64,000 nt of DNA from Candidatus Saccharimonadia bacterium (GCA_041743505.1 JBGTMQ010000021.1:521-64520), one strand, 5' to 3'; shown: positions 9,514 to 64,000, counted from the stretch's first letter. A program made the numbers and translations. The notes: generated by a model not told the origin, from the sequence alone.

Positions 9514-9614
9514 GGCGCAAGTATAACAAAAAGAGAAACGCCCCGCCGGCCACAGAGGCCGACAGGACGTCCGCTCCCCGCGGTCAGCGAGGCTGTTGTT
9601 TGTTGGTGCGTCTC

Positions 9615-30435: not shown

Positions 30436-30441
30436 GAGCAT

Positions 30442-32178: not shown

Positions 32179-32672
32179 AGCCGCTACTGATGCTGGGCGC
32201 AGTGTCATTCAAAAAAGAGATTGCGATCGTGCTTGTTTCATTGGGTGTGATCGTGTCTCTGCCGGTTGTCGCGCTCGCGTCCGTTGTGGATGTGGGGCAA
32301 ATGAAGGACCCGGAGGTCAAGCTCTATACCGGGCCAGTCTCGACAACGAACACCTACGTTTTCGGTCATTGCACATACTGGGTTGCAATACGGCGCGAAC
32401 AAACAGGCACTCCCATTCCGAACAATTGGGGCCACGCGAAAACATGGGCTAGTAACGCGATTAGCCAAGGCTATAAGGTCGACCATGTCCCGGTTGTGGG
32501 GTCAATCATGCAAACGACGGCAGGGCTATTCGGTCATGTGGCATATGTTGAGAGCGTAAACACAGCCGATCGCAGCTGGACTATTTCTGAAATGAACTTT
32601 GTAGGGTGGGATGTGATGAGCAACCGCACCTTGCCCGCGAAAGCAGCGCTTGATTATAACTTTATTCACTAG
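32175..32672 (+). CDS. CHAP-domain peptidoglycan hydrolase (VirB1-like function)
   Basis: Signal/TM N-terminus. Cys...His CHAP motifs (GHCTYWV...GHVAYVE). ATGA overlap with VirB4 stop. Confidence 0.6.
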   Translation: MKPLLMLGAVSFKKEIAIVLVSLGVIVSLPVVALASVVDVGQMKDPEVKLYTGPVSTTNTYVFGHCTYWVAIRREQTGTPIPNNWGHAKTWASNAISQGYKVDHVPVVGSIMQTTAGLFGHVAYVESVNTADRSWTISEMNFVGWDVMSNRTLPAKAALDYNFIH

Positions 32673-32680
32673 GGGCTGAG

Positions 32681-35287: not shown

Positions 35288-35372
35288 CTCGTATCAATGC
35301 CCCCTGCCGGCTTTACTCTCGCCTGTAAGGCGAAAGTTCTACAAGGGGCAGGCACGCGTTTTATACGTTACT

Positions 35373-38698: not shown

Positions 38699-38713
38699 AC
38701 TGCGGCCCTTTGT

Positions 38714-42265: not shown

Positions 42266-42312
42266 TTGTAATATGTAACATCAAAACAGCATAGTGCTGC
42301 TTATCCTGATCC

Positions 42313-42864
42313 TTATTTTATATAACCGAGGTCCCGAGCCGAATGCCACGCGATTAAGAGGGATGGGTCAATTATCTCTTGCTTGCGGATCATTTCGTCG
42401 AGCTTTTGGACGGGCACAAGCACCTTCTCAACAACCTCAGATGGGTCATCTAGTTTCAGCTCCGAGACCTCAAAGTCGTCGCAATAAAAAAGGTGAGCAG
42501 CCCAGTCCGCACGGCCCGGGTTTGGGTAGAAGCTAGCAAGCTTGACTAGTGACTTTGGTCGAATTCCAACCTCCTCCCGGCATTCGCGGATTGCAGCCTC
42601 CTGGATATCTTCGTTCGCAGGAGAACCGCCCCCAGGAAGGTCATAAATCCATCGGTTTAAGGGGAACCGGAACTGATGTGTCAGTACGATCTGATTGTCC
42701 GGCGTCTTAATGAGCACTGCGACTGCTTTCCCGTCTGAATGTTCAACTTCATACTTAGTGTGTTCGCCATTTGCTAGAACAGCCTCATGCTCGACGACAT
42801 GAAGTCGACCTTTGTAGGCAGTCTTTTCACTCAATCGTTGCCATACGGGGTATCTGTCAGCCAT
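42313..42864 (-). CDS. NUDIX hydrolase (ADP-ribose pyrophosphatase-like)
   Basis: Nudix box GGGSPANEDIQEAAIRECREEVG. Confidence 0.7.
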   Translation of the reverse strand: MADRYPVWQRLSEKTAYKGRLHVVEHEAVLANGEHTKYEVEHSDGKAVAVLIKTPDNQIVLTHQFRFPLNRWIYDLPGGGSPANEDIQEAAIRECREEVGIRPKSLVKLASFYPNPGRADWAAHLFYCDDFEVSELKLDDPSEVVEKVLVPVQKLDEMIRKQEIIDPSLLIAWHSARDLGYIK

Positions 42865-43023
42865 TGTATTCTTCCATCGCGTATTATGTGATAGGTAGAT
42901 TATAGCAAAAACAAGATGTTACACAAATAAAGTGTATGTTACTTTGAGGATGACATTGCTCAATGCTATAGTGGCACCGGGCAAATTTCTCAATCCCCGT
43001 TCGCACCTTGAAGGAGCACAGTC

Positions 43024-43839
43024 ATGCTCAATGTGTTCAAGCCCGCTGACGTCACCGTCTTCTTGCCAGTAGGCGGACGTGCTACGCGTGCGCTGGAAGT
43101 AACGGCTGACACTATACCTAAGCACCTCATCATGCTCGGCAATGGCCTCCCGATTCTCGAAGTTGCGTGCAGGCAGCTCCAGCTCGTCGGCTTCCGCCGG
43201 TTCGTCTTCTGCACCGGGCACCACCAGGAGCAGATCGCGAACTTCGTACGAGAGGGACTGTGGGTGAGCCATGAAAACGTGGACTATGAAATATCAGTCG
43301 AGTTCGAACCACTCGGCCCGGAAGGTGCCATTTTGGCCGCCATCCGTGACTTCGGCATCACTGGTCAGGCGATGTTTATTGCTGGTGACGTCATGGTCCC
43401 GTGGGATGCGCTCGTCACCATGAACGAGCGACACGCCAGCAGACAGGCCGACATCACTGTTGGTCTCACTAGCTACATCACGGAGCGCACAACAGACGTC
43501 GGCAAGATCATTGTTGATCCCGAGGACGGTCGAGTTGTGCGCGTCCATGGACGCACCGAGAAGTCGGTTTGTGGCGACGATGAGCAGGCACTTACTAGCG
43601 CCGGCCTATCTGTTGTTTCAATTCCTCGCTACAGCGAGCTCTGCAGTGAGTACGAAACGTCCCGTGGGCTGGGCGACAAAAAGCCCTTTGGCCTACGCGA
43701 CGATGTTTTGCCGTGGGCGCTCAGGAAAGGCAAGCTCGGCATCTACGGCCACGATCTTCACGGTGAGGTGCTCGATCTGGGCACTCCCGAGAACATTCGC
43801 TATGGACAGGAGAACTGGAGTGAGTATGTACTCGACTAG
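43024..43839 (+). CDS. sugar-phosphate nucleotidyltransferase
   Basis: VFLPVGGRATR (GxGTR-like) N-terminus. AAGGAG 7 nt upstream. GC-rich. Confidence 0.55.
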   Translation: MLNVFKPADVTVFLPVGGRATRALEVTADTIPKHLIMLGNGLPILEVACRQLQLVGFRRFVFCTGHHQEQIANFVREGLWVSHENVDYEISVEFEPLGPEGAILAAIRDFGITGQAMFIAGDVMVPWDALVTMNERHASRQADITVGLTSYITERTTDVGKIIVDPEDGRVVRVHGRTEKSVCGDDEQALTSAGLSVVSIPRYSELCSEYETSRGLGDKKPFGLRDDVLPWALRKGKLGIYGHDLHGEVLDLGTPENIRYGQENWSEYVLD

Positions 43840-43852
43840 GAGAAGGCCCCGA

Positions 43853-45127
43853 ATGCTTTTTAGTTTCTGGGACGGAGGGCGAGGACACTTCACACGCGAA
43901 ATGACGCTCGCAGCCGAAGCCCACCGGCGAGGTTCGGTGGTAGGCTTCATAACCTCAACTCGCTACGCCGATGAGATCAGGAAGCGTATACCGGAAGCTA
44001 CGGTGTATGTCATCCCGACGCGGCCTCCGCACGTCGGTCCGCCTCCGTACCCGTTCCCGCTGTACTCGCACGCTTTCGGGCATGCGCAGAGGCTTAGGGG
44101 CCTGGGATTCGATAATGTGTCCTGGATCCAGGACACTACCGAACAGGAAATCGAGGCTATCCGACAGTTCCGTCCTGATGTCATGGTCAACGACTACCGC
44201 GACACCGTCAGGACGGCCGCCGAGGTCTGCAGGATTCCGCTGGTCGGCGTCGCTGAAACTACCGGCAACGCTAATGGCCGGAAACTCGGTTGGTGGGTAG
44301 CGCCGCCAGAGGGCACGATCCTGCCGGACTGCCGTTCCAGCTTCAATCAGGTGCGGGAGCGTTTTGGCCTGAATCCCATCAGGGACGAGCGTGAGATGTT
44401 CAATGGGGATATCAACATCATCCCCAGCTCTCCGACGCTAGACCCACTGGTTGCACCTTCGCCCAACTCTTACTACGTTGGGCGAATCTGCCAGTGGGTA
44501 CCCGAGGGTGAGAACGTGCCGTATATCGCGCCAGACAAGAGTCGGCGACGCATATATAGCTATGTGGGCGATCCGACACGCCAGGCGTACGGATACGAGC
44601 AAATGCTGGCTGAAGTCATCCGACGCGAGCCCCGCCAAGGGTTCTACATTGCCGGCAACACCGGCCGCTATAACGGAAAGCTCGCGTCACGAGTCAAGGA
44701 CGGAACGGTCGTACTGGAGGACTTTCTTCCTGCCGACCCCCTTATCCGCGACTCGGATGCCGTCCTCTGTCATGGAGGACAAGGAACGGTCATGCAGGCA
44801 CTTGTCCTGGGTAAGCCGCTCATCTGCATCGGGCCGTACCACAGCCAGATGACCTCCATCTTCCGCCCTCTCGAAGAAGCGGGGGCAGGTGTGATGCTGA
44901 ACTATTCGGAAGAGCCTCTTGAGCGCCGACCGGCACCTGACCTCGGCGATGGGGTGGAAATCTTCGGCTACTGGCGTACCGATCTCAGCGCCGATCGTCT
45001 CCATGAAGCCCTGCTGGATGTCTGCAACAATCCGCAGTACGCCGAACGTGCTACCGCTCTCGGTTTAGAGCTTGCGGCACTAGGCGGGGTCGCACAGGCC
45101 GTGGATCTGTGCGAAAGCTTGGCCTAA
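43853..45127 (+). CDS. GT1-family glycosyltransferase (MGT/UDP-glycosyltransferase-like)
   Basis: N-terminal MLFSFWDGGRGHF and C-terminal CHGGQGTVMQAL donor-binding motif. ORF-track start 43460 is an out-of-context extension overlapping the upstream gene. Confidence 0.6.
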   Translation: MLFSFWDGGRGHFTREMTLAAEAHRRGSVVGFITSTRYADEIRKRIPEATVYVIPTRPPHVGPPPYPFPLYSHAFGHAQRLRGLGFDNVSWIQDTTEQEIEAIRQFRPDVMVNDYRDTVRTAAEVCRIPLVGVAETTGNANGRKLGWWVAPPEGTILPDCRSSFNQVRERFGLNPIRDEREMFNGDINIIPSSPTLDPLVAPSPNSYYVGRICQWVPEGENVPYIAPDKSRRRIYSYVGDPTRQAYGYEQMLAEVIRREPRQGFYIAGNTGRYNGKLASRVKDGTVVLEDFLPADPLIRDSDAVLCHGGQGTVMQALVLGKPLICIGPYHSQMTSIFRPLEEAGAGVMLNYSEEPLERRPAPDLGDGVEIFGYWRTDLSADRLHEALLDVCNNPQYAERATALGLELAALGGVAQAVDLCESLA

Positions 45128-45145
45128 GCATAAAACGGGCCGCAC

Positions 45146-45177
45146 GGCTCCGCTCCTGTACACCCGGGAGCGGAGCC
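45146..45177 (+). terminator. stem-loop after glycosyltransferase
   Basis: ggctccgctcc...gggagcggagcc. Confidence 0.45.
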
Positions 45178-45271
45178 AGCTTCATTCGTATAAGTAATTA
45201 TTTTGTAATTCATTGTAGAAGTAGGTGGGGTTGCGTGTACACACAACCCCACCCTGGCCCCATCGACGTAA

Positions 45272-46492
<1,221 letters not shown>

Positions 46493-51540: not shown

Positions 51541-51585
51541 GAGGCTCGGAGTCTTTACGACTGCCGGGCCTCCTTTTTTGCGTCG
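51541..51585 (+). terminator. intrinsic terminator between convergent genes
   Basis: ggaggctcgg...ccgggcctcc followed by tttttt. Confidence 0.5.
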
Positions 51586-52340
51586 AGGATTTGGCTAATT
51601 TGCTTCTGCATAATCACTTCAATCACGAGTTCGTCTTCATACGAGTCCTCGATTTCAGTTTCCGTGAACTTGGACAGCTTGTATTGCATGTTCTGCGTGC
51701 TGCAAATAAACAGAATTACCGGCAGCTCTGAGCCGGTGGCGTCCTCCCAGTCCCCTTCTTCGGCATACTTGATGTATTGCTTGATGCGCTTCATCGCCAC
51801 AAAGAATGGCTGTGCGTCGTCCATCATATCTAGTATGAAATGCCTTTCATTGCCGGCAGCGTCCAAACGCAGATATGCATCAGGCATCGGTTTGGGGAAA
51901 TACTCAAAATTTGAAAGCTCGCTCTTGGTGAAATACCGCAGGCGATCCCCGTATTGTGCCTTAAGCTGGCAATAGAGGCGGAATACGACTAGCCGATGGC
52001 GGATGAAGCGATCTGAAGCAGTTTTGTCCTTATAGGCGCTGTGAAGCACGGTGGGGTCGTATTTTTTCTCCGGCAGGCTCTTAAGCGCTCGTATGCCCTT
52101 TGGCAGCAAGTGAAAAGACGCGTGCTGTCCTAGCAAATGATAGTCCGGCCGATATTTGCGGCCAATGTACTCTTGGACCAGCAGTGTCTTTAGGCGGCGG
52201 TTCATTTCACTTTTATCTTTTTTGCCTAGGCTCTTAGCGAGTAGGTCCGTGGTTGCGAAGCGAAAGCGATAGATTAAATGAAGTATGGAGATTTGTTTGT
52301 CATTGAGTGACTTATGGGATGTGGGCTGATGTGTACTCAT
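51555..52340 (-). CDS. replication-relaxation-family-like wHTH protein
   Basis: N-terminal wHTH (QISILHLIYRFRFATTDLLAKSLG). The architecture resembles Replic_Relax proteins of actinobacterial plasmids. Tentative. Confidence 0.35.
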   Translation of the reverse strand: MSTHQPTSHKSLNDKQISILHLIYRFRFATTDLLAKSLGKKDKSEMNRRLKTLLVQEYIGRKYRPDYHLLGQHASFHLLPKGIRALKSLPEKKYDPTVLHSAYKDKTASDRFIRHRLVVFRLYCQLKAQYGDRLRYFTKSELSNFEYFPKPMPDAYLRLDAAGNERHFILDMMDDAQPFFVAMKRIKQYIKYAEEGDWEDATGSELPVILFICSTQNMQYKLSKFTETEIEDSYEDELVIEVIMQKQISQILDAKKEARQS

Positions 52341-52440
52341 AGCGTCTCCAGTATATAGGTATAAATATTAAGGAGACTAATACATCTCGATTGTAGGCTG
52401 AATCATAAATCTTATAGATCTTTGCGAAAAGGCCTATAAG

Positions 52441-53658
52441 CTATTTTGTCGCGCGCCGTAAAAGTACTACGCCTAATCCGGCCGCGATCACCGAGGTCAA
52501 TAAGATGCTCAGCTTTGCAGCGGCGTGCAGCCCAAACTCCGCATCGAACGAGAGGTCCGCTACGAATAAAGCTACGGTGAAGCCAATGCCCGCAACGCTG
52601 GAGACGCCAAGCATTTGACTCCAATTAGCACCCTTTGGCAGCCGGGCAATCCCCAGGCGAATCAATAGCCAGGAAGTGCCCGTAATTCCGACGATTTTGC
52701 CGACTAGCAATCCCCCGAATATTCCTAGTCCAACTGTGACCGCCGCAGGCTCATTAAATGGAACTCCGGCTAGTGTAACGCCAGCGTTCGCTAGCGCAAA
52801 CAAGGGGATTATGACGAAGGTGGCGACCGGGAAGAGTAATCTTTCTAGCCGCTCCCCAACCGATAGGCCGCCGAGACCACCGGCCGCAACGGGTGCGAAC
52901 AAGCCGATAATAGCCCCGGCGATGCTAGCCTGCACGCCAGCCATATGAAGGCAATACCAGAGCGCCGCCGTGAGGATGAGAAAGATTGGTACGCCCACCC
53001 GAGTGAATCGTTTTAGCCATAGGGCCAGACCGATCACTCCAAACGCACCTAGCAGGGGCAGCATTGTTAGACTGCCTGAATAAAACACTCCTATGACGAA
53101 GATCGCGCCAATATCATCGACAATAGCTAGGACGAGCAAGAACAGCTTCAGCGAATACGGAACCCGGCTGCCGAGGGCTGCCAATACGGCGGAGGCAAAT
53201 ACGATGTCGGTTGCCATGGGGATGGCCCAGCCATGACTGCCGGCGCCGGTTAGATTGAATTTGAGATAGATAAGCGCAGGGACGATCATGCCGCCGATTG
53301 CGGCCAGGGTTGGCAAAAGAGCTGTGCGTGCGCCGCGTAATTCGCCCCTCACAAATTCACGCTTAATCTCTAAACCGACCACTAGAAAGAAAATGGTCAT
53401 GAAGCCTTCGTTGATGAGATGGCGCCAACCCGACCAGGCAGCCTCATAGCCGCCAAGCAACGATGTATTGGCCCATAGCAGTGCTAGGACGGTAGCCACA
53501 AGGAGAGCTACCCCACCGGCGGCTTCGGCTACTATGAAGTCCCGAAATGGCCACGGGAGGAACCGGCGAATATGAAAGAGAACCGCTACTCGGTGGTCAT
53601 TTGGCTTATGCAAGACTGGCTCCGCTTTTAGAAAGGTCGACCAGACTTCCCGACGCAC
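52441..53658 (-). CDS. nhaA: Na+/H+ antiporter NhaA
   Basis: Signature FFLVVGLEIKREF and polytopic topology. GC-rich. Confidence 0.8.
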   Translation of the reverse strand: MRREVWSTFLKAEPVLHKPNDHRVAVLFHIRRFLPWPFRDFIVAEAAGGVALLVATVLALLWANTSLLGGYEAAWSGWRHLINEGFMTIFFLVVGLEIKREFVRGELRGARTALLPTLAAIGGMIVPALIYLKFNLTGAGSHGWAIPMATDIVFASAVLAALGSRVPYSLKLFLLVLAIVDDIGAIFVIGVFYSGSLTMLPLLGAFGVIGLALWLKRFTRVGVPIFLILTAALWYCLHMAGVQASIAGAIIGLFAPVAAGGLGGLSVGERLERLLFPVATFVIIPLFALANAGVTLAGVPFNEPAAVTVGLGIFGGLLVGKIVGITGTSWLLIRLGIARLPKGANWSQMLGVSSVAGIGFTVALFVADLSFDAEFGLHAAAKLSILLTSVIAAGLGVVLLRRATK

Positions 53659-53968
53659 CTAGAAGCTATTGATTGAGGCGTTATCGCCCCGATATATGCT
53701 TTATTTTAGCACAATTGCCTTGCCTGAAATCGAAGGTAAATCCCTTGCCTCTATACCTATAGATATAGTAAACTATATTCATAGGTATAATAATGCTACG
53801 CGGGGGGCGATATGGGGCGCACAAAGGGCTCAAAGAATAAGAGCGAACTGGTGAGGCCTACGACCTCCGCTCTGACCTCGGAGGGCAGAATTCAATTTCT
53901 AGCAAACCTCATGATTGATCGGGTACTTGGCGACCCAGGCGATCCAAGTAAGAAGGCGGAGGCCTACG

Positions 53969-55711
53969 ATGAATGATTTCCCGCCAAAGGAAAATGGTGT
54001 TGCAGCAATCCGCGTGTCTTCCGTCAAGCAAGGTACTGAGGGCGACTCGCCGGAGGCTCAAAAAGAGCAAATGGCGCAGTTTTTTATGTCTCAAAATCTC
54101 AATCTGAAGAAAGTGTTTATCTTTTTGGAGTCGGCTTCGAAGGACGAGCAGCCGATGCAGGAGGCCATCGACTACTGCAAGGACCCCAAGAACGATATTC
54201 AAGTTTTTGTCATAAAATCGATCGACCGTTTCACTAGGGGTGGCTCCTACTCTTATGATTTCCTTAAGATGCAGCTTGAACGATACAACGTAAAGCTCGT
54301 CGATATATACGGCATAATTAGTTCGCAAAAGATCAACACTTTGGCCCATTTAGGTGTCGAGTATAAGTGGAGTGTGTTTTCCCCCTCTAAGAAGTCCGAA
54401 ATACTTGAGGCTGAGCGTGCTAAAGACGAGATGCGCGATATTATGAGCCGCATGATCGGTGCAGAGATCCGCTACGCCCGTATGGGGTACTGGATACGCA
54501 GAGCGCCCTACGGCTTTGACACGGATAAGCTAGAGACATCGAATGGTAAACGCTGCATTCTGAGGCCAAATGCCTCAGAGGCGCCGTTTGTTATTAAAAT
54601 GTTTGAGCTGAGAGCCCGGGGCACCTTAACGGATGAGCAAATAGTCGAGGAAATCAACCGGCTCGGATATAAATCCAGACTCAAGAAAAAGCGAGATAAG
54701 CACGACAAGACTACGATTGTCGGGCAAACGGGCGGAAATGAGCTTAACCTGAAGCACTTCCTTAAGTTTGTTCAGTACCCCATATACGCCGGCATAAATA
54801 CGGAGAAATGGACACAAGGAAAGGCGACAAAATGTAAGTTTGAGGGTCTCGTCTCGATTGATCTCTTCAACGCCGCAAATAAAGGCAAGCTGACAATCGT
54901 GGAGGAGAACGGTGAAGTGGCGCTCTATAGAATAAGGCCGCCAGAGTACCGCATAACCAAGGGTGTAAAAAATCCCGAGTTCCCTTATAAGAAATATGTC
55001 ATGTGCCCGACCTGCGAAAAGCCCCTTTATGGGAGCGCATCCAAGGGTAGATTAGGCAAGTACTATCCTGCCTATCATTGTAATAGCCGCGGTCACTACT
55101 TTAGGGTGCCATCCAGAGACTTCGAAGAAACGATTACTAAGTTCGTGAAAAATCTTCAAGTCTCGCCGGAATATATTGATGCACTCGTGGAGGCCGTCGT
55201 AACGGAATGGGAGAAGCGTGAAAAGGAACTTCATAAGGACGACGTAAATATTGATGCCCGCATTGCTGAGCTGAAGGCTCAGGCGCGAATGACGGCCGAT
55301 AAAATTCGCTTTCTGAATTCAGAAGTAGCGATTAAGTATATTGAAGAAGACTTGCTAAAAATAGAGGGGCAAATTGCTATGCTGATTGCAGAAAAAGCTA
55401 ACGCGACGGTTCAAGAACCCATAAATATAAGGGTCATTATGGAGAAGGTAAAATATTTTCTGGAACACCTAGATGAACTGCTACTCTACCAGATCAATCC
55501 ACTCGCAAAAGCAGCTTATTTTGGGGTTATTTGGGACAAGGCTCCAACGTACCAGGAAATACTTTCTGGAACCCAAGATTTATCCCTCTGCGAAGGGCTA
55601 AATGAAGTGTTTAAACTTAAGAATATGGAAAATGATTCAATGGTGGGCCATCAGGGACTCGAACCCTGGACACGGAGATTAAGAGTCTCCTGCTCTAACC
55701 AACTGAGCTAA
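53969..55711 (+). CDS. large serine recombinase (integrase)
   Basis: Resolvase N-terminal catalytic domain AAIRVSSVKQ...DSPEAQ, recombinase domain, Cys-rich zinc ribbon (CPTCEK...CNSRGH), coiled-coil. GGAGG upstream of ATG 53969. 3' end overlaps the antisense tRNA-Lys. Confidence 0.75.
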   Translation: MNDFPPKENGVAAIRVSSVKQGTEGDSPEAQKEQMAQFFMSQNLNLKKVFIFLESASKDEQPMQEAIDYCKDPKNDIQVFVIKSIDRFTRGGSYSYDFLKMQLERYNVKLVDIYGIISSQKINTLAHLGVEYKWSVFSPSKKSEILEAERAKDEMRDIMSRMIGAEIRYARMGYWIRRAPYGFDTDKLETSNGKRCILRPNASEAPFVIKMFELRARGTLTDEQIVEEINRLGYKSRLKKKRDKHDKTTIVGQTGGNELNLKHFLKFVQYPIYAGINTEKWTQGKATKCKFEGLVSIDLFNAANKGKLTIVEENGEVALYRIRPPEYRITKGVKNPEFPYKKYVMCPTCEKPLYGSASKGRLGKYYPAYHCNSRGHYFRVPSRDFEETITKFVKNLQVSPEYIDALVEAVVTEWEKREKELHKDDVNIDARIAELKAQARMTADKIRFLNSEVAIKYIEEDLLKIEGQIAMLIAEKANATVQEPINIRVIMEKVKYFLEHLDELLLYQINPLAKAAYFGVIWDKAPTYQEILSGTQDLSLCEGLNEVFKLKNMENDSMVGHQGLEPWTRRLRVSCSNQLS

Positions 55712-55717
55712 TGGCCC
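55641..55717 (-). tRNA. tRNA-Lys (anticodon CTT), CCA encoded
   Basis: Hand-folded cloverleaf. Acceptor GGGCCAT/ATGGCCC, D-arm GCTC..GAGC, anticodon stem GGAGA/TCTCC with loop CTCTTAA, T-arm CAGGG-TTCGAGT-CCCTG, discriminator A plus CCA. Confidence 0.85.
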
Positions 55718-55734
55718 GCATGATTGTAAACGCC

Positions 55735-55810
55735 TGGTGCGCCCGGAGGGACTCGAACCCCCGACACCGTGGTCCGAAGCCACGTGCTCTATCCACTGAG
55801 CTACGAGCGC
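55735..55810 (-). tRNA. tRNA-Arg (anticodon TCG), CCA encoded
   Basis: Acceptor GCGCTCG/CGGGCGC (one G-T wobble), D-arm GCTC..GAGC, anticodon stem CGTGG/CCACG with loop CTTCGGA, T-arm GGGGG-TTCGAGT-CCCTC, ACCA 3' end. Confidence 0.8.
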
Positions 55811-55839
55811 ACGTAGCGGATTTCCGGCGCAACTTAGCT

Positions 55840-55865: not shown

Positions 55866-56855
55866 CTAGACAGGTGCGCCGCTTGTTGGTGGCGGACCGG
55901 TTTTTTTGTGCCAGCCCGGGAAATGCTCGTCGAGATAGTGGCGCATAATGAGGGCGGCGCTGACGCCTTCGCCAACGGCGCTGCCGATTTGCCAGGTTGA
56001 GCCACTGCGAACGTCGCCGGCGACGAACACACCGGGCAGGTTGGTTTGAAACGAGTTGTCGGACAGGACGAAGCCCCGGTCGTCGGCGGCTACGCCGTTT
56101 AGGCCGTGAGTGTTGGGCAACAGGCCGATGAACACAAACACCCCATCGGTTTCAAGCCGGTTAGTCGTGTCGCCGGTTTGTTGTTCGATGAGGATGGGTG
56201 ATGCGGGACTCGTTCGTGCTAGACGATTGACCTTGGTATTGTAGTGCACGCGGATATGTTTTTCCGCGGCGACTGCCCGCTCTAGAATGTCGCTGCCGTT
56301 AAATGCTTCGCCCCTGACTAGGATATCGACGGAGGAAGCGAAGTGAGCCAGGAACAAGCTCTCCTGCAGAGCGGAATTACCGCCGCCGATGACTGCTAGG
56401 CGTTTGTTTCTGTAGAGGGGGCCGTCGCAGGTGGCACAGTAATGGACGCCCCGGCCAATCAGCTCGGCTTCGCCGGGCACACCAAGCCGGCGGTACGTGG
56501 AGCCAGTGGTTATGAGAGCGGCTCTAGCCTGAATGACGGTATCACCAACTTCAATAGAGACCGCTTTATCTTTTGTGGAAATGCCCGTAACTTCATGAAA
56601 GGGTGCTAAGGCTGCGCCGAAACGCTCGGCTTGAGCAGTCATTTCGTCAGTTAGCGCCAGGCCGCCAACGCCTTTACTGAAGCCTGGGTAGTTATCGATG
56701 GTCTCGGTGATAGCGGCCATACCGCCGAAGGCGGTTTTATCCAGTACCAACGTTTTCATACCCTCGCGAGCCGTGTAAACGGCTGCGGATAGCCCGGCCG
56801 GACCGCCGCCGATGATTACGGTGTCGTATTTTTGTTGTAGTACATCCTCTGCCAT
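55866..56855 (-). CDS. trxB: thioredoxin-disulfide reductase
   Basis: FAD motif VIIGGGPAGLSAA, redox centre CATCDG, NADPH motif VIGGGNSA. Confidence 0.85.
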   Translation of the reverse strand: MAEDVLQQKYDTVIIGGGPAGLSAAVYTAREGMKTLVLDKTAFGGMAAITETIDNYPGFSKGVGGLALTDEMTAQAERFGAALAPFHEVTGISTKDKAVSIEVGDTVIQARAALITTGSTYRRLGVPGEAELIGRGVHYCATCDGPLYRNKRLAVIGGGNSALQESLFLAHFASSVDILVRGEAFNGSDILERAVAAEKHIRVHYNTKVNRLARTSPASPILIEQQTGDTTNRLETDGVFVFIGLLPNTHGLNGVAADDRGFVLSDNSFQTNLPGVFVAGDVRSGSTWQIGSAVGEGVSAALIMRHYLDEHFPGWHKKTGPPPTSGAPV

Positions 56856-56860
56856 GACCG

Positions 56861-57109
56861 CTAGAGCCCAAGCACTTGCTTGAATTTGGCCTGGTCAAAG
56901 CCGAGGATTTTGGTTTGGGCGCCGGCTTTATCTTTTAGGACGGTAAATGGTACCCCAATGGCGCCGTCGTTAACGCTCATGAACTCTGCCATGGCAGCCG
57001 GGTCTTCATCAGTTACCTTATTGGTGTAGGCAATGCCTTGGCTGTCGAGCCAGGTCTTAAGCGCATGACAAAAGTTGCAGGTGGTGGTGGAGTAAATCGT
57101 AATATCCAT
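56861..57109 (-). CDS. glutaredoxin-like protein (NrdH/Grx fold)
   Basis: 82 aa with CNFC active site near the N-terminus. Confidence 0.6.
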   Translation of the reverse strand: MDITIYSTTTCNFCHALKTWLDSQGIAYTNKVTDEDPAAMAEFMSVNDGAIGVPFTVLKDKAGAQTKILGFDQAKFKQVLGL

Positions 57110-57146
57110 AGAAATTCCTTATAAAGTTATATTAACTACCATTGGA

Positions 57147-57896
57147 CTATTTTAGGCTTGATTCTTTGGGTAGTAATTGTTCCTCCAGCTTGGTGACATC
57201 AAATGGCAAGTGCTCAATGGCCCAGGCCTGAAACTGTTTGTCGTAGCCTAGTGCGACGGCCAGGCCAACGATGATCAGGACTATGGCTAGACTCCGACGA
57301 AACCAACCGTTGGGATTAGCTGTCCAGCCCAGTCGTTTGGTGAGCTTTTGGCCGGCCAAGGCGATGGCCAGCAGCGCTAGGCTGAGTCCGAGGGCGTAGG
57401 CCACAATGTACACCAAGCCGAGGGCTAGGTTGACGGGTAAGACGGTGGCCAGAACCAACGCATACACGGGGCTGCAGCTGGAAAAAACTGGTCCCAGGGC
57501 GGCTCCGGTGAGGATTTGACCGCCGAGGCCCGAGCGTTTGGACGCCGCGGCTAGAAACTCGTTGGAGCCTTGCTCGAACCCAATTTTGGTGCTGATGCTG
57601 ACCCATAGATTCGGGAAGAGCATGGTGATGCCTAGGAGTACGACGATGCCACCGGATAGATACAGCCAGACGTCAGGATCTACTCCGATCAAGACGGTCG
57701 AGGCTTTTAAGAGCAAGGTAAAGGCTACGACCGAGAGGCCGAGGCTTAAGGCAATGACGTAGGGCTTTTTACGGTCGAGTTTCGCATCGCCATCCGATAA
57801 TGCTGAACTGCCAACGATGACCGGCAGGAGCGGTAGTATGCACGGTGCTAGTGAGGTGAGTACTCCGGCAAGAAATGATGCGATCAGTAGGAACAT
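57147..57896 (-). CDS. ccdA: cytochrome-c-biogenesis/thiol-disulfide transporter CcdA (DsbD family)
   Basis: N-terminus MFLLIASFLAGVLTSLAPCILPLLP with conserved Cys, and a second conserved Cys in ...GPVFSSCSPVYALV... Confidence 0.7.
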   Translation of the reverse strand: MFLLIASFLAGVLTSLAPCILPLLPVIVGSSALSDGDAKLDRKKPYVIALSLGLSVVAFTLLLKASTVLIGVDPDVWLYLSGGIVVLLGITMLFPNLWVSISTKIGFEQGSNEFLAAASKRSGLGGQILTGAALGPVFSSCSPVYALVLATVLPVNLALGLVYIVAYALGLSLALLAIALAGQKLTKRLGWTANPNGWFRRSLAIVLIIVGLAVALGYDKQFQAWAIEHLPFDVTKLEEQLLPKESSLK

Positions 57897-57935
57897 GATT
57901 TTACCCTTATCAAATTGTAGTTAGTTTTTGGTAGC

Positions 57936-58421
57936 TTAAATAGCCTGGGCTTTAAGTTCATCGTAGGTGTCGCTGCCATGCCACTTCTTTAGGAGTTTGC
58001 CATCTTTGTCGACCTGCACAAAGGTGTGCTGCATGGTAACGCCATATTTTTGCTTAATTTCCGTCGATTTGTCGTAATCAAGCTTTAGAACCGTCAAGCC
58101 GTCGGGTGCACTGGCGGCATTGAAGTTCTTATTGGCCTGCCGGCAAGTTGGACACCAGACTGCACTAAAGAACAACACGACATCGCCATTTTCGGCGTTA
58201 GCCAGCTTGGCCTGGTCATAGTCGCCAAAACTGCCTTTGGCGGCCACAGCGCCACTGTCTTTGGCCGTCTGATCTTTTTGTGTGGGCTGGTTCTGGCCGG
58301 CCGACGGGGTGTTAGAAGTTGTTTTGGGATCTGGGGATTGGTTTGAGAGAGCTAGTGCTCCGCCTCCTAGCACCACCAGTGCCAGGGCGGCAATCACGAT
58401 ATATTTCTTTGCCATGAACAT
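57936..58421 (-). CDS. membrane-anchored thioredoxin-like protein (TlpA/ResA-like)
   Basis: Signal anchor plus WCPTC CxxC motif. Confidence 0.65.
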   Translation of the reverse strand: MFMAKKYIVIAALALVVLGGGALALSNQSPDPKTTSNTPSAGQNQPTQKDQTAKDSGAVAAKGSFGDYDQAKLANAENGDVVLFFSAVWCPTCRQANKNFNAASAPDGLTVLKLDYDKSTEIKQKYGVTMQHTFVQVDKDGKLLKKWHGSDTYDELKAQAI

Positions 58422-58485: not shown

Positions 58486-58863
58486 TTACTTTTGAATATA
58501 TTTGCCAAGCAATTTGGCGATGATCATTACTACCAGAGCCACCACCAGGAGGGTGGCATCTTCGTGACGCAGTGTCTGTATAACTACCCCAGCAGACAAC
58601 ACTATTGACCCGGCTAGAAACCCGAGGCGATCGGATGCCATTATTAACTGCGCTTCGCGTTCATCGCGGGGCTGCTCGCGCCAGATAAGCATGGCGAAGA
58701 GGGCGAAGAGGGCGACAAAAATGCCGGCTGCCAGCATTACCACCGCACCGGGCATGAACGATGCGACTAGCTTCGAGCAGAGCACAAGACAGAATACTGC
58801 CAGGCCACCGACTAATATGTCGCTCTTGCTATCATCTCGTGAGAAAAAATCTTTCATAGCCAA
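58486..58863 (-). CDS. small membrane protein (DUF2178-like) co-transcribed with XRE regulator
   Basis: Four hydrophobic segments. 10-nt overlap with the upstream HTH gene. Confidence 0.45.
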   Translation of the reverse strand: MAMKDFFSRDDSKSDILVGGLAVFCLVLCSKLVASFMPGAVVMLAAGIFVALFALFAMLIWREQPRDEREAQLIMASDRLGFLAGSIVLSAGVVIQTLRHEDATLLVVALVVMIIAKLLGKYIQK

Positions 58864-59066
58864 AATAGCTCTCCGATTGGTTTTTTTAATGCCTGAGCTA
58901 GCTTTAATGCAAGTAGCACGCTAGGGGTATAATTGCCTTTTTCAATTGCAATAATGGTCTGGCGTGTTACGCCAACCATATCTGCAAGTTGCGCCTGGGT
59001 CAGCCGGGCGCTTTTTCTGGTCTGCTCCACGCAGTTATTGGGTGTGTCGGTGATTTTTATAAACAT
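58854..59066 (-). CDS. XRE-family HTH transcriptional regulator
   Basis: ARLTQAQLADMVGVTRQTIIAIEKGNYTPSVLLALKLAQAL. Confidence 0.7.
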   Translation of the reverse strand: MFIKITDTPNNCVEQTRKSARLTQAQLADMVGVTRQTIIAIEKGNYTPSVLLALKLAQALKKPIGELFWL

Positions 59067-59458: not shown

Positions 59459-60631
59459 ATGGACCGATATAAGGCCAATGCCAAATGGCTGACGTACTTG
59501 GCGCCATTTCGGGTGCTGTCTATTAGTGCCGCCTACCTGATGCCGTTCTTTTTGGAGAAAGGATTCAGCCTCACAGAAGTGTTTTTGCTGCAGTCGGTGT
59601 TCTCCTTGGCGGTGTTGCTCTGGGAGATACCGAGCGGATATGTGGCGGACCGGTTTGGCCGGGCTTTCTGCATAAAGCTAGGCGTACCACTGGCCGCTGT
59701 AGCAATGCTAGCCTATGGTTTTAGTGACCATTACTGGCAGTTTGTGGTCTGCGAGCTGGCACTGGCGATAGCCAGCGGGTTGATGAGCGGCGTTGACACC
59801 GCGCTACTGATCGATTCGCTGAAGGCCGACGGCCGGGAAAACGAGTACGTGAAGAGCAGCCAGCGCATAAATGCGTTTGGTTTTGCGGCTACGGCCTTGG
59901 GTGTACCGCTGGCGTTTGTGCTGGTGAAGTACATCGGCGTGAGCGCGACGCTCATAGCTGACGGCGTTTTGACGGCGATTGGCTGCGTGTTTGCCTTTAG
60001 GTTGACGGAGGCTCCCCGCTTTAACGGGAGCCAAGAAGCGATCCGGTTGTCGGCTTGGCACGCTACGAGAGAGCTGGCGCGGAACGTAGAGGCGCGATGG
60101 CTGGTGGTGCTTGGCTCGGTACTGACTGTGTCAACCTACCTGGCGTTCTGGCTATCGGCACCGTACTACGAGAGTCTGGGCATACCAGTGATGTTCTTTG
60201 GTGTCATTCTGGCAGTTCGCAGCCTATGGAAGGCCGGGTTGTCGCATTGGTTTCACCAAGAAAGGCACCTGGAGCGAAACATGCTGGGCTATGCGGGACT
60301 GGCCGGGTTGGTTTATTTGGCTATGGCCACCAAGCAACTTTGGCTCCTGGTGGCCGTGCTGGGGCACGATGTGGTGCAGGCGCTCCATAGTCAGCCGATT
60401 ACCGGCAAGCTTAACTCCCACATAGCCCAAGACTTTCGGGCCACGCTCAATAGCACGGTGAACCTCGTCCAGCGAATGGTTTACATGGTGGCGGGGCCGC
60501 TCGTCGGGCTACTGGTGGACAAAGCCGGCATACAAGTTGGGTTCGTGGTGACGGGTCTGACGTGCAGTGCGATTGCATTGGCGGCGCTGGCTAGGCTACA
60601 CCGGCTGGGAACGTTTCGGGAACACAAGTGA
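59459..60631 (+). CDS. MFS transporter
   Basis: 390 aa, about 12 hydrophobic segments. Motif GYVADRFGR (MFS loop 2-3). GC-rich. Confidence 0.7.
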   Translation: MDRYKANAKWLTYLAPFRVLSISAAYLMPFFLEKGFSLTEVFLLQSVFSLAVLLWEIPSGYVADRFGRAFCIKLGVPLAAVAMLAYGFSDHYWQFVVCELALAIASGLMSGVDTALLIDSLKADGRENEYVKSSQRINAFGFAATALGVPLAFVLVKYIGVSATLIADGVLTAIGCVFAFRLTEAPRFNGSQEAIRLSAWHATRELARNVEARWLVVLGSVLTVSTYLAFWLSAPYYESLGIPVMFFGVILAVRSLWKAGLSHWFHQERHLERNMLGYAGLAGLVYLAMATKQLWLLVAVLGHDVVQALHSQPITGKLNSHIAQDFRATLNSTVNLVQRMVYMVAGPLVGLLVDKAGIQVGFVVTGLTCSAIALAALARLHRLGTFREHK

Positions 60632-60911
60632 CAACAGTCCTAGGGGCATTTCGCCGGCCCCTAGGACTTTCTTGTGGACGAGCGTGTATGATTTAGAAAT
60701 GAAAACGCTCCCGCTAATAGCAAGCGCCCGCCAGCTGGTGGCTGATAATTACAAGTGTCTAGCCGTAAAAAAAGCCTAGGCCTGGTACTTCAGGGGTAAT
60801 TGCTTGGCGGCAATTATTGGGTGGCAAGTTTGGATAATCTAGAGGACGCGGTGGCGGTTATGATTGCAATTAATGAGGCCGCCGGGTTAAAAGCCCGGCG
60901 GCCGATGGTTA

Positions 60912-61700
60912 TTACGCCTTTGAACGTGGTGCTAGTACTGGCAAGACCCGGTCGCCTTGGTTCCAGCTCCTCATGCGATCTGCTACTGCCTGTCGGTTAT
61001 ATTGTGCTAGTGCCGACAGTTTCTGGCGCGACCTGACCTGCGACCGGTCAAGCCAGGGCGGAAGATCCGGGAACATGAGCGGGAACTCCCCGGGATTGAG
61101 CTGCTCGGTTGCGACTACGAACTCATGCAGGTTGAGCGTGGCGGGCCAGATCGGCTCATGAGTGATGGGACCGCCTTCTTCGCTGGGATACAGGAAGGCG
61201 TTGCCGATGTCCCAAGGTAGCCAATTGAAGGCCCGGAACATGACCGCACGGACCGTCAGCAGATAGTCGTGGCAGCCGGCGGCTACCGACCGGTTAACCA
61301 ACAGGCCAATGAGAGCCAAGAGGGCCCTTCGGCCGACCGGTGTGCGCTGGTGCGCGGCGAGCACTCCCACGCGGGAGGGTTCGGAGTACCGCTTACTGTT
61401 GTCCAAGGCCGGCGCGTGATGGAGCCGGTCCCAAATCCGGCCGGTAGGCAGGTCTGTGATAAGCTGACCCATTGGTAGCGGCCGGGCCAGGACAAGCCGG
61501 GCTGTCGCTATGACTACGCCGTCTTGCGAAACGCCGAACAGCAAGGCGTGCTGGTCGTACTCGTCGTGAGAGCTGCAAGGCGAGGAGGCCTGACAGTATT
61601 CCAGGACTTGGCCGCCACCGCCCTCGCAGAAAATCGCGTGCCTGGCAGCCAGACTACGGTAGCGGTCCCGATGACTTTGCGCTTCCCAGATTGTTAGCAT
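60912..61700 (-). CDS. GNAT-like N-acyltransferase of the FeeM / N-acyl-amino-acid-synthase (Acetyltransf_5) type
   Basis: ...SSHDEYDQHALLFGV...GVVIATARLVL... matches the DE(F/Y)D...H-L...GT-R-L core of FeeM/autoinducer-synthase-like GNATs. Inference from motif memory. Confidence 0.45.
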   Translation of the reverse strand: MLTIWEAQSHRDRYRSLAARHAIFCEGGGGQVLEYCQASSPCSSHDEYDQHALLFGVSQDGVVIATARLVLARPLPMGQLITDLPTGRIWDRLHHAPALDNSKRYSEPSRVGVLAAHQRTPVGRRALLALIGLLVNRSVAAGCHDYLLTVRAVMFRAFNWLPWDIGNAFLYPSEEGGPITHEPIWPATLNLHEFVVATEQLNPGEFPLMFPDLPPWLDRSQVRSRQKLSALAQYNRQAVADRMRSWNQGDRVLPVLAPRSKA

Positions 61701-61715
61701 GGGGTCTATCGCTCC

Positions 61716-62426
61716 TCACCTCCTTTCGGCAATGACCAGCCAGTTCTGGCCGGCGTAGGTGCGACGAATTTCGGCTATCTGCCAGCCGGAACTTTCAAAC
61801 CAGTGGCGCAGCTGAGGCTCGTCGGGGGCGTGGAAGGCACGCGTACCCAGCTCGGCGCAGATTTTCTCGTTGTAGCCGGCCACCGGAGCAAGCAATTTTT
61901 GTAACCGGTGGCGTTCGTGCGGCAGCTCTTCCCCGTTCAGGCCTTGGAGATGCTCAGCCAGCAATGCCTGTGGATCGGCATCCGGGCCTGGAGTAGATAC
62001 CACCAGAACGGCCTTACTGGTAGCGTGTGAGTGTAGCCGGCGCAAGACGGAGGCCGGGCTCCGCAGAGCATAGAGGCCGTTGTTGCAGATAAACCGGTCA
62101 TAGCGCCCGAACAGTCCCCAGTTTGAGATCGGTTGATCGAGATCGGCTGCAATAAACTCAACCGGGCCGGCGTAGGGCTCGGTGCGAGCCTGTCCCAGCA
62201 TGGCCTCGGATTTATCGAGCGCGGTCACCTCGCAGTGGTACCCGGACGCATTGAGCGCCCACAACAGGCCGCCATCCCCGCAGCAAAGATCGAGCAGGCG
62301 AGTGTCATGACCTGGCCTAGCGCAGGCAATAATCTCAAAGAGTAAATTGCGGTAGGGTGATAAGGCGCGAAGCCGGCTGTACACCCGAGCATATTCTTTC
62401 CACAGCTGAGCCTGGTCGATTGCCAT
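61716..62426 (-). CDS. class I SAM-dependent methyltransferase
   Basis: Motif I LLDLCCGDGGL. Paralogous to the next gene. Confidence 0.65.
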   Translation of the reverse strand: MAIDQAQLWKEYARVYSRLRALSPYRNLLFEIIACARPGHDTRLLDLCCGDGGLLWALNASGYHCEVTALDKSEAMLGQARTEPYAGPVEFIAADLDQPISNWGLFGRYDRFICNNGLYALRSPASVLRRLHSHATSKAVLVVSTPGPDADPQALLAEHLQGLNGEELPHERHRLQKLLAPVAGYNEKICAELGTRAFHAPDEPQLRHWFESSGWQIAEIRRTYAGQNWLVIAERR

Positions 62427-62505
62427 GACGATTACTCCCGATGATTGGATACGTTAAAGGACGGGAATATAGTTACCCTTGGTTATTCTATAAGAGAATG
62501 GCTTT

Positions 62506-63231
62506 TTATGCTTGCGGTTCCTGTACTGCCGTCACGAGCCAGTTCTGGCCGGCATAGGCGAGGTCGATGTCAAGGATCCGCCAACCAGAGTTTTTGAACC
62601 AATGGCGTAGCTGGGATTCGCTAGGCAGATGGTAGTTGTCGCCATAACGCGCAAAAAGCATTTCGTTGTACTTGAGCAAGGGTTGTAAGCGGGGCATTAA
62701 TTGCTGCATAGCCTCTTCGCGGGTCAAGCCATTGCCTTCGGAGAGCTGAAGGTGCTCATCGAGCAGCTCCTGGATGTTGGGGTTGGGGCGCGGAGTAGAC
62801 ATCACTAAGCGGGCATTATCGGCGGCGAGTGCGGCGGCTTTTTGCAGGGCCTGGGCCGGATCGTTGAGTAGACACAAGCTATTATTGAATATGATCCGGT
62901 CGAATGGTCCGGTGACACCCCAACTACCTACTGGCTCGTCGAGATTGGCTTTCACAAGCTCCGCCTGGCCATCATATTTGGGTAGCTTGCGGGTGGCCTT
63001 CTCAAGCATGGCATCGGAATAGTCAAGGCCCGTAACGTGACACCGGAGACGCTGCTCCTGGAGTGCCCAGAGCAGGTTAAAGGTGCCGCAACAGGCGTCG
63101 AGCACTCGTAGGCCATCCTTGGCCTGGGCGTGTTCGACTACGTCCAAAAGCAAGTTTCGGTAGGGGATTACCTTGAGCACTTCGTCGTAGACCCGGGAGT
63201 AGCCACGCCAGAGCGCTTCGTCGTTTAACAT
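62506..63231 (-). CDS. class I SAM-dependent methyltransferase (paralogue)
   Basis: Motif I VLDACCGTFNL. Shared C-terminal ...LRHWF..SGW.I.....YAGQNWLV.A with the 61716-62426 gene. ORF extends to 63276. Confidence 0.65.
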   Translation of the reverse strand: MLNDEALWRGYSRVYDEVLKVIPYRNLLLDVVEHAQAKDGLRVLDACCGTFNLLWALQEQRLRCHVTGLDYSDAMLEKATRKLPKYDGQAELVKANLDEPVGSWGVTGPFDRIIFNNSLCLLNDPAQALQKAAALAADNARLVMSTPRPNPNIQELLDEHLQLSEGNGLTREEAMQQLMPRLQPLLKYNEMLFARYGDNYHLPSESQLRHWFKNSGWRILDIDLAYAGQNWLVTAVQEPQA

Positions 63232-63381
63232 GTGTTTCTCCCCCGTTGATTGGCCCTCGATATGCCTATTATTCACAATATGGTGACTTTTTACAAGCTA
63301 TTCATCTTGTGGGGCCCGGATTCACGGCAAAATGACCATTGCAACTGGAGGTTTGCAGATAGGCTACCGCTTGCATAATGG

Positions 63382-63882
63382 CTAACTTGTTACCTCATAA
63401 TCATTCAGCTTGGTGATCTCTCGCCTGGTCAGCTCGATTGAAGCCCGGTGGTATCGTGTCAGGAATTCAAGTTCAGGAGTGGAGTAGGCCTCGAGCATTT
63501 TTTCAAACGCTTGCCCTATTGAGCTGTATACGTTGTCCATTGTTGCAATCCTTGGTCGATTTACTGCAACTATCACCTTCCGGCGATCTTTGGTGTCAGG
63601 CTCACGTTTCACGATGTCCCGTCGCCCGAGCCTGTCGATAACGTTTGTAACTGCACCGGTTGTTAGGCTTAATCTTTTTGCGATTTGCCCGGCAGTCATC
63701 GGTCCCTCTTGCATTAGCACCGAGATCGTCTTCATATCGGTAATGCCTAACCCATACTTGGCGGCTGCAGCTTGCTGAAACAGTGCCGTTTCAGTGCTAG
63801 CCATCTCACCCAAAAAAATCATTTGGTTCATGAGCGATCTTCGGAGATCTTCTTTCTGCATGCTGACTTTCTCCATAATCAA
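63382..63882 (-). CDS. MarR-family transcriptional regulator
   Basis: wHTH ...MTAGQIAKRLSLTTGAVTNVIDRLGRRDIVKREPDTKDRRKVIVAV... Confidence 0.65.
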   Translation of the reverse strand: MIMEKVSMQKEDLRRSLMNQMIFLGEMASTETALFQQAAAAKYGLGITDMKTISVLMQEGPMTAGQIAKRLSLTTGAVTNVIDRLGRRDIVKREPDTKDRRKVIVAVNRPRIATMDNVYSSIGQAFEKMLEAYSTPELEFLTRYHRASIELTRREITKLNDYEVTS

Positions 63883-64000
63883 TTGACGCTATATATCTTG
63901 ATGATTAAGATAATATTGTAACTTAAGCTTTTAATGTGATGCAAGGAAACAAATGAACAGAAAAACCAACCCATCCACACTGTCTGGTGCTACCCGTTGG

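Follow-up and report, generated by a model that had tools for sequence, protein, structure and literature searches.

Near the end of a 64,000-nucleotide stretch of DNA from Candidatus Saccharimonadia bacterium (GCA_041743505.1, JBGTMQ010000021.1:521-64520), which was analysed at its full length and is referred to here as the window, four genes lie side by side on the minus strand. In their direction of transcription they encode a regulator of the MarR family, two S-adenosylmethionine (SAM)-dependent methyltransferases, designated MT1 and MT2, and a protein of the GNAT fold, designated X, which is presumed to be an N-acyltransferase. Our results indicate that the four genes form a real and probably biosynthetic unit, whose conserved core is MT1, MT2 and X, hereafter called the cassette, and that X represents a rare, uncharacterised branch among the LuxI/FeeM-like members of the GNAT superfamily. 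Several of the most familiar signals and bioactive lipids of bacteria are products of LuxI/FeeM-type enzymes, and Saccharibacteria are ultrasmall, host-dependent epibionts.

An initial annotation, made from the sequence alone, had placed four co-directional minus-strand genes in this order at 60912-63882, and all four were recovered, two of them with shorter starts in the gene callers (Table 1). For MarR and MT1 we prefer these shorter starts, which are the gene calls on the identical public contigs L002, L003 and L015, and both of which are preceded by ribosome-binding sites of the GGAG type. The gaps between MarR, MT1, MT2 and X measure 150, 79 and 15 nucleotides (nt), respectively. A sigma-70-like match in the spacer between MarR and MT1 agrees with the consensus at 9 of 12 positions and could give MT1-MT2-X a promoter of their own, as judged from a consensus scan in which such sites are weak evidence, five being present in the region against 2.1 expected. 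At the other end, a GC-rich hairpin between the convergent genes for X and for a major facilitator superfamily (MFS) transporter is probably where transcription of the unit ends. A 13-nt motif occurs upstream of both MT1 (GCTATTCATCTTG, 63297-63309) and MarR (GCTATATATCTTG, 63888-63900), the two copies being 85% identical; it was considered as a shared operator half-site and set aside, its length being small enough for chance.

The operon had also been described as GC-rich. This holds for X (GC fraction 0.617) and MT2 (0.599), both above the 0.513 of the window, with MT1 at 0.559; it does not hold for MarR (0.485), and the elevation is modest, the adjoining TrxB and MFS genes being at about 0.58.

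Conservation of the cassette among related loci

Thirteen independent contexts of X and its homologues were compared (the window, L001, L004, L005, L007-L014 and two Joint Genome Institute (JGI) contigs). In nine of the thirteen, X is either fused to a methyltransferase of the MT1/MT2 family or directly preceded by the gene for one. Among the other four, L011 carries a different methyltransferase, two contexts end at a contig edge, and L014 has none. The X proteins of these contexts are 25-50% identical, and the fact that the linkage to a methyltransferase has been kept despite this divergence argues that the arrangement is not due to chance. When the window is set beside the related loci, the cassette alone is common to both, and the flanks differ. 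The linkage extends to a natural gene fusion, P0026, a protein of 455 residues in which a methyltransferase of the MT2 type is joined to X.

An orthologous multi-pass membrane histidine kinase of about 710-720 residues follows X in seven of the thirteen contexts, either directly (L005, L010, L011, L012 and L013) or after three genes (L007 and L008). Full-length identity among the X-linked kinases is 42-63%, and HisKA_7TM was detected in the kinase of L008. A stand-alone receiver is encoded just upstream in L005, L011 and L013, where these proteins are 69-80% identical to one another, and also in L007 and L008. In these relatives, X, the kinase and the receiver may constitute a synthase-sensor module.

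Two of the loci, L007 and L008, contain additional genes of interest. Each encodes a second protein distantly related to X (hhalign 94%, E 1e-7), which matches the model of the exosortase-associated acyltransferases with E values of 1e-7 to 7e-10, under its cut-off. The gene immediately after that of this second homologue encodes a third, CMAS-like methyltransferase. A gene for a PlsC-type acyltransferase (PF01553) stands directly after X, between the two GNAT-plus-methyltransferase modules, and L008 also encodes a fatty-acid desaturase.

The family is extremely small. It comprises 26 clusters at E ≤1e-3 among 1.84 billion representatives at 50% identity, and X is represented by three proteins in a collection of 5.8 billion sequences. 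A search of species-representative genomes (one per species) with one narrow peptide pattern, by which divergent members could be missed, yielded one match, the metagenome-assembled genome Candidatus Saccharibacteria bacterium G2_22 (JACAFG010000001.1, locus L004), whose X is 46% identical to that of the window. Patterns derived from the three closest homologues of X gave no match in the species-representative genomes. The full alignment of 26 members was too diverse for pattern design, and a subset of eight members was used instead; the pattern drawn from it is the one that identified the G2_22 genome, and in metagenomes it gave only two loci. In L004, the methyltransferase at the second position of the cassette is present as two overlapping open reading frames (ORFs) in different frames (9025-9974), with X and MT1 intact, which reflects either a frameshift, making it a pseudogene, or an assembly error. 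The JGI relatives presumably derive from soil samples.

The paired methyltransferases and the putative acyltransferase X

MT1 and MT2 are 45% identical over 237 residues (E 7e-63) and share the C-terminal motif QLRHWF.xSGWxI..I...YAGQNWLV.A, which bears out the paralogy and the common motif proposed at the outset. Both are class I SAM-dependent methyltransferases. The Pfam models Methyltransf_23, _31, _25, _12 and _11 are matched over their cut-offs by MT1 and MT2 alike, with 61.2, 50.9 and 51.0 bits of MT1 for Methyltransf_23, Methyltransf_31 and Methyltransf_12, respectively, and 46 bits of MT2 for Methyltransf_23, and the class I features of motif I (LD.CCG) and an acidic beta2 residue (D71) are kept in the cassette methyltransferases. 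No specific NCBIfam family was found for either protein, the best models (BioC, UbiE, Tam, CpaM and others) giving at most 38 bits against cut-offs above 100. RNA methyltransferase models were not matched at cut-off, and RsmB, CmoA, CmoM and Hen1 scored lower than BioC, UbiE and Tam. A profile of 12 cassette methyltransferases searched against the PDB retrieved a heterogeneous set of small-molecule enzymes, the best being UbiG (2.4e-9). Likewise, the AlphaFold model of MT2 (predicted local distance difference test (pLDDT) score 82) shows the class I fold, and ChlM, CmoA, BelI, CypM, PmtA, BioC and others match it about equally well. Since the NCBIfam, PDB-profile and fold comparisons all return only heterogeneous, mostly small-molecule matches, MT1 and MT2 are outside the rRNA and tRNA methyltransferase families; a grouping with these families, which would have refuted the initial annotation, is not seen. 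Membership in a known defence system was considered as well and rejected, PADLOC reporting a generic match of the methyltransferase domain to mad2 and none for X.

Between MT1 and the methyltransferases that come first in other cassettes, identity is 55-61%. In a neighbor-joining tree, MT1 falls in a clade of methyltransferases from the first position (74% bootstrap), and MT2 in a second clade that unites the other methyltransferases from the second position, P0006 and the methyltransferase domain of the fusion P0026 (60% bootstrap); the cassette methyltransferases as a whole form a clade with 97% bootstrap. The split into two orthologue groups, the outcome of the phylogeny that had been suggested for this pair, places the duplication before the divergence of the genomes that carry the cassette, and two old and separate groups imply two distinct methylations. 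Of the two, MT2 is more closely tied to X, because the methyltransferase domain that is fused to X in P0026 groups with the second-position type.

X by itself matches a single Pfam family, FeeM, with 21.2 bits against a gathering threshold of 27 (E 2.6e-4, residues 43-152), a significant though sub-threshold match with which the earlier proposal of a FeeM-like protein is compatible. X gave no match to Acetyltransf_5, none to Autoind_synth (PF00765) even at E values up to 1, and none among the NCBIfam models for OlsB, for N-acyl-homoserine lactone (AHL) synthases or for exosortase-associated enzymes. The search for Acetyltransf_5 and Autoind_synth was more productive with the family, in which, among the 26 members (E up to 0.1 for FeeM), FeeM was matched by ten (best E 2.1e-6), Acetyltransf_5 by six and Autoind_synth by two (best E 0.0074); these three are the only acyltransferase families that were matched. 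The consensus of the family gave weaker matches to Pfam and NCBIfam than single members did. Its score against TIGR03694, the model of the PEP-CTERM/exosortase-associated acyltransferases, was 14.8 bits (E 0.014) against a cut-off of 111.95, so the link to PEP-CTERM-associated GNAT proteins that the initial annotation had raised is negligible. The core motif on which that annotation relied is present in part: X contains HDEYD, and in place of the expected GT.RL it has ATARL, GTARL being found in relatives.

A more specific placement came from a profile of 26 sequences (alignment A2), which retrieved from the PDB the AHL synthases RpaI (6wn0, E 2.4e-5), BjaI (5w8c, 8.8e-4) and EsaI (0.26). The match spans the N-terminal part, residues ~14-150, and the alignment sets the motifs R..F, D..D, R and E.SR of the family on the LuxI motifs of RpaI and BjaI. 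LuxI enzymes carry a signature of nine residues, which in LasI are Arg23, Phe27, Trp33, Asp44, Asp47, Arg70, Glu101, Ser103 and Arg104. These residues form the site for SAM and the acyl thioester in LasI and EsaI (PMC4655403, PMC4246208, PMC4609879), and roles have been described for Arg23, Phe27, Trp33, Arg104 and Phe105 of LasI (PMC4655403, PMC4246208). Eight of the nine signature positions are present in the X family; the ninth, that of Trp33, has no counterpart, its place in the alignment being an insert column. Conservation at the retained positions is high, with R20 kept in 23 of the 26 members, F/Y24 in 24, D46 and D49 in 23 each, R68 in 25, E107 in all 26, S109 in 24 and R/K110 in 25. 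Four further residues, H21, C25, C36 and H45, are kept in 20-23 of the 26 members in the region where LuxI enzymes have the loop with the SAM-pocket Trp; they may form a metal site or a disulfide. The insert also bears a PHD motif. The C-terminal half of X is family-specific and follows the pattern W.PW...PF.YP..EGGP...EP.WPATLNLHE...MFP...W.D...N...W.

An AlphaFold2 model of X built with the A2 alignment (pLDDT 96.3; predicted template modelling score 0.92) has a GNAT core that is extended by helices at the C-terminus. In a Foldseek search of the PDB, the AHL synthases TofI, MesI, LasI and EsaI ranked 1, 3, 10 and 11 (E 8e-7 to 6e-6), chains of FeeM (2g0b) took rank 2 and ranks 4-9 (E 8e-7 to 3.5e-6), and the top matches had target template modelling (TM) scores of 0.57-0.66. 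The agreement of the sub-threshold FeeM match, the family profile, the structural search and the conserved residues places X with the LuxI/FeeM-like GNAT proteins, in none of the named families. In this sense the FeeM-like assignment stands as a matter of superfamily branch, and does not extend to membership in FeeM or in any other family with a curated threshold.

Neighbouring genes and features of the window

MarR matches its Pfam family with 50.3 bits against a cut-off of 24.6 and is, by sequence, a winged-helix regulator of the MarR family, as had been proposed. It is not a conserved partner of the cassette, the MarR proteins encoded beside other members of the X family being only ~28% identical to it or less and not orthologous. 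MFS genes beside other members are likewise not homologous to that of the window, and the two genes, having no orthology between loci, were ruled out as conserved cassette partners. The MFS transporter of the window may export the product; its membership in the unit is doubtful. No gene for a LuxR-type receptor was met near X, the neighbours in the window being MarR, the MFS transporter and an XRE-type helix-turn-helix (HTH) protein.

Beyond the MFS gene, a thiol-redox cluster on the minus strand (55866-58421) encodes a thioredoxin reductase, a glutaredoxin, a DsbD-type membrane protein and a thioredoxin-like lipoprotein, and is followed by genes for a small membrane protein and the XRE-type HTH protein (58486-59066). 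The regions 27910-39934 and 51555-55811 belong to a probable integrative conjugative element, and the X operon is located on the other side of the tRNA genes. A gene content with type IV secretion genes, a HerA/NurA pair and a serine recombinase beside two tRNA genes would fit a Saccharibacteria-like genome. Parts of the region from 18 to 50 kb have a lower GC fraction (0.44-0.48). A group of sugar- or small-molecule-related genes occupies 41027-46459.

Table 1. Positions of the genes and features discussed, in the window or in the related locus named
Feature	Locus	Position	Strand	Remark
MarR, mechanical ORF	Window	63382-63882	minus	TTG at 63882; first gene of the unit
MarR, preferred start	Window	63382-63861	minus	ATG at 63861; 159 residues; gene callers and ribosome-binding site
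MT1, mechanical ORF	Window	62506-63276	minus	GTG at 63276
MT1, preferred start	Window	62506-63231	minus	ATG at 63231; 241 residues; gene callers and ribosome-binding site
MT2	Window	61716-62426	minus	236 residues; class I SAM-dependent methyltransferase, paralogue of MT1
X	Window	60912-61700	minus	262 residues; GNAT-fold protein, presumed N-acyltransferase
Sigma-70-like promoter match	Window	63268-63296	minus	TTGTAA, 17 nt, AATAAT; consensus scan, MarR-MT1 spacer
GC-rich hairpin	Window	60877-60903		12 pairs (10 G-C); 9 nt beyond the X stop codon
MFS transporter	Window	59459-60631	plus	390 residues; Pfam MFS_1 70.6 bits; convergent with X
T4SS (type IV secretion system) pilin	Window	27910-29334		Part of probable integrative conjugative element
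VirB4/TraG-like ATPase	Window	30442-32178		Part of probable integrative conjugative element
Coupling protein	Window	32681-35287		Part of probable integrative conjugative element
NurA/HerA pair	Window	35373-38698		Part of probable integrative conjugative element
DNA methylase	Window	38714-39934		Part of probable integrative conjugative element
EgtD-like Methyltransf_33 protein	Window	41027-42265		
NUDIX protein	Window	42313-42864		
Nucleotidyl transferase	Window	43024-43839		
GT28/EryCIII-like glycosyltransferase	Window	43460-45127		Overlaps nucleotidyl transferase ORF in another frame
UDP-galactopyranose mutase	Window	45272-46459		
Replic_Relax protein	Window	51555-52340		Part of probable integrative conjugative element
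Serine recombinase	Window	53915-55711		598 residues; 3' end of gene overlaps tRNA-Lys
tRNA-Lys	Window	55641-55717	minus	Overlapped by recombinase gene
tRNA-Arg	Window	55735-55810		Next after tRNA-Lys
Distant X homologue	L007	7562-8284		240-246 residues in L007 and L008; no Pfam match
Distant X homologue	L008	7485-8225		240-246 residues in L007 and L008; no Pfam match
Histidine kinase	L005	9446-11614		
Histidine kinase	L007	9046-11211		
Histidine kinase	L008	8969-11122		
Histidine kinase	L011	6848-8209		
Histidine kinase	L013	6872-9004		
Histidine kinase, N-terminus	L010	1959-2183		
Histidine kinase, N-terminus	L012	1294-1518		

Proposed function, alternatives and comparison with known systems

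We propose, with a probability of about 0.5, that X, MT1 and MT2 together make a small methylated N-acyl compound. The initial annotation had likewise raised a methylated product, either an N-acyl amino acid signal or a lipid. X would use a phosphopantetheine thioester, either acyl-acyl carrier protein or acyl-coenzyme A (CoA), as acyl donor and would acylate a small acceptor on its amino group; this acceptor would presumably be an amino acid or amine and less likely SAM, as in LuxI enzymes. MT2 and MT1 would each methylate a different position of the acceptor or of the product, which is expected to be small and lipophilic. In the relatives, this compound would be a probable cue for the adjacent membrane kinase, or would be made under the control of that kinase; in the window, it would be made under the control of MarR and perhaps exported by the MFS transporter. 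Among the roles that such a product could have, that of a lipophilic signal read by a kinase appears the most plausible, because the cassette in relatives adjoins a membrane kinase, in several of them together with an upstream receiver; inferred from gene neighbourhoods, a signalling role nevertheless stays doubtful. Somewhat less probable still is the wider proposal that the cassette is the synthase arm of an unrecognised cell-cell signalling system in Saccharibacteria-like bacteria of the candidate phyla radiation, with a methylated N-acyl signal detected by a kinase and a receiver and, in the window, a rewiring to MarR.

Several observations weigh against the proposed synthesis of a methylated N-acyl compound or against its use as a signal. 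X passes no curated family threshold in Pfam or NCBIfam, a phmmer search with X alone against the PDB sequences returned nothing, and the Foldseek scores are modest (E ~1e-6, query TM 0.44-0.50), with generic GNAT proteins close behind. Where LuxI enzymes have the Trp of the SAM pocket (Trp33 of LasI), the X family instead carries an insert that contains the conserved cysteines C25 and C36, and for this reason the acceptor of X cannot be inferred. The likeness of MT1 and MT2 to other proteins is generic, being that of small-molecule class I enzymes, so that their substrate is not readable from sequence or fold. Moreover, a scan of the ORFs of the window and BLAST comparison with the related loci found no kinase or receiver near the cassette, and no PlsC-type gene (PF01553) either; the argument for signalling is thus borrowed from the relatives. 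Finally, Saccharibacteria have been reported to lack membrane-lipid synthesis (PMC10939385), which makes the source of the acyl donor problematic for all acyl-transfer models if the host is a Saccharibacterium.

The cassette could instead serve the synthesis of a membrane aminolipid, with X acting as an N-acyltransferase like OlsB or GlsB to give a lyso-aminolipid, the methyltransferases N-methylating the head group, and the kinase sensing the state of the membrane. Six of the 26 family members match Acetyltransf_5, which we take to be the family of the OlsB type, and in L007 and L008 the PlsC-type gene follows X as the logic of OlsB and OlsA would have it, in the company of the CMAS-like methyltransferase and, in L008, the desaturase. 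The chemistry itself is well established for OlsB, OlsA and OlsG, the last of which methylates ornithine lipids (PMC12971839). Set against this are the cassettes of the window, L001, L004, L005, L011 and L013, none of which has an adjoining PlsC-type gene, the absence of an NCBIfam OlsB match for X, and the affinity of the family profile for AHL synthases. The matches of the methyltransferase profile and model to phosphatidylethanolamine and phosphoethanolamine N-methyltransferases also fit an aminolipid, but they are no better than those to many unrelated methyltransferases. We consider this alternative unlikely. A true AHL-type synthase, which would acylate SAM and release methylthioadenosine, with MT1 and MT2 modifying either its acyl donor or its product, is more improbable again. 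Its appeal is that the closest sequence matches are the CoA-dependent AHL synthases RpaI and BjaI, that only one of the nine LuxI signature residues is lost, and that TofI, MesI, LasI and EsaI rank high in the structural search. The missing residue, however, is the Trp of the SAM pocket, and the alpha1-beta2 segment is longer and contains conserved Cys and His residues; Autoind_synth is matched by just two of the 26 members, at E 0.007 or worse, no LuxR-type receptor gene adjoins X, and no LuxI precedent for a pairing with methyltransferases was found in the literature searched.

A role in resistance, in which the GNAT protein and the methyltransferases inactivate an incoming xenobiotic or antibiotic under MarR control and with MFS efflux, seems about as improbable as the AHL-type synthase. 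The unit begins with MarR and has an MFS gene beside it, L004 and the contig of P0016 have pairs of MarR and MFS genes at a distance of 1-3 kb from the cassette, and many of the lower-ranked Foldseek matches are resistance GNAT proteins such as AAC(2'), phosphinothricin acetyltransferase and the tabtoxin resistance protein. Yet neither MarR nor MFS is orthologous between loci, the top matches are synthases and not resistance enzymes, and neither the conservation of a specific set of LuxI-type motifs nor the linkage to a sensor kinase in seven of the thirteen contexts fits this role. That housekeeping methyltransferases merely happen to stand beside an orphan GNAT gene would agree with their matching generic class I models only, but the synteny persists at 25-50% identity of X in unrelated neighbourhoods, the fusion P0026 exists in nature, and MT2 and X are separated by 15 nt; we regard such a coincidence as very improbable.

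The interest of the cassette lies in the rarity of X, in its fusion or pairing with methyltransferases and in the linkage to a kinase in a poorly understood lineage. The X branch is covered at threshold by no Pfam or NCBIfam model and is extremely rare in public data. In the literature searched, no chemical communication system has been reported in Saccharibacteria. Should the kinase read the product as a signal, the cassette would add both a signal-receptor pair and a signal chemistry that are new; should the product be a lipid, the cassette would point to the synthesis of head-group-methylated aminolipids in a lineage thought unable to build lipids. With three genes and about 2.3 kb, the cassette is small and thus open to a direct test by heterologous expression.

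Among known systems, a class of alphaproteobacterial natural products requires both N-acylation and methylation, and the genes for its synthases are not yet known (PMC11580390); the cassette has no sequence link to this class, and the analogy is one of chemistry only. The OlsB/OlsA (+OlsG) and GlsB/GlsA systems resemble the cassette in combining an N-acyltransferase of the same broad clan with SAM-dependent methylation (PMC12971839). They differ from it in that their O-acyltransferase partner is not found in the window, a PlsC-type gene adjoining X only in L007 and L008, and in that OlsG is a single enzyme resembling phospholipid N-methyltransferases, not a conserved pair. CqsA/CqsS, LqsA/LqsS and LuxM/LuxN are quorum-sensing pairs of a synthase and a membrane kinase. 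As X does in the relatives, the synthase gene of such pairs adjoins that of a multi-pass membrane kinase; the synthase families are unrelated, the likeness is architectural only, and the pair is absent from the window.

FeeM (PF21926, PDB 2G0B), which comes from uncultured soil bacteria, is the Pfam family matched by X itself and by the most members of its family (10 of 26), and it is the second-best structural match of X. By sequence, in contrast, the family profile retrieves LuxI-type chains from the PDB and not the FeeM chain, and to our knowledge the fee cluster is without paired methyltransferases. The LuxI-type AHL synthases (PF00765; EsaI, LasI, TofI, BjaI, RpaI and MesI) have the GNAT-like fold in common with X, which has the residues R..F, D..D, R and E.SR at equivalent positions. 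X differs from them in scoring under their Pfam model, in having a Cys/His insert instead of the SAM-pocket Trp, and in its family-specific C-terminal half. Many signal synthase genes adjoin a receptor gene, and X, too, often adjoins a candidate receptor gene, which encodes a membrane histidine kinase (MarR in the window) and not a LuxR protein. Most distinctively, X is partnered with methyltransferases, and its branch is the only one of the LuxI/FeeM type that we found to be tied to such enzymes, up to the point of gene fusion.

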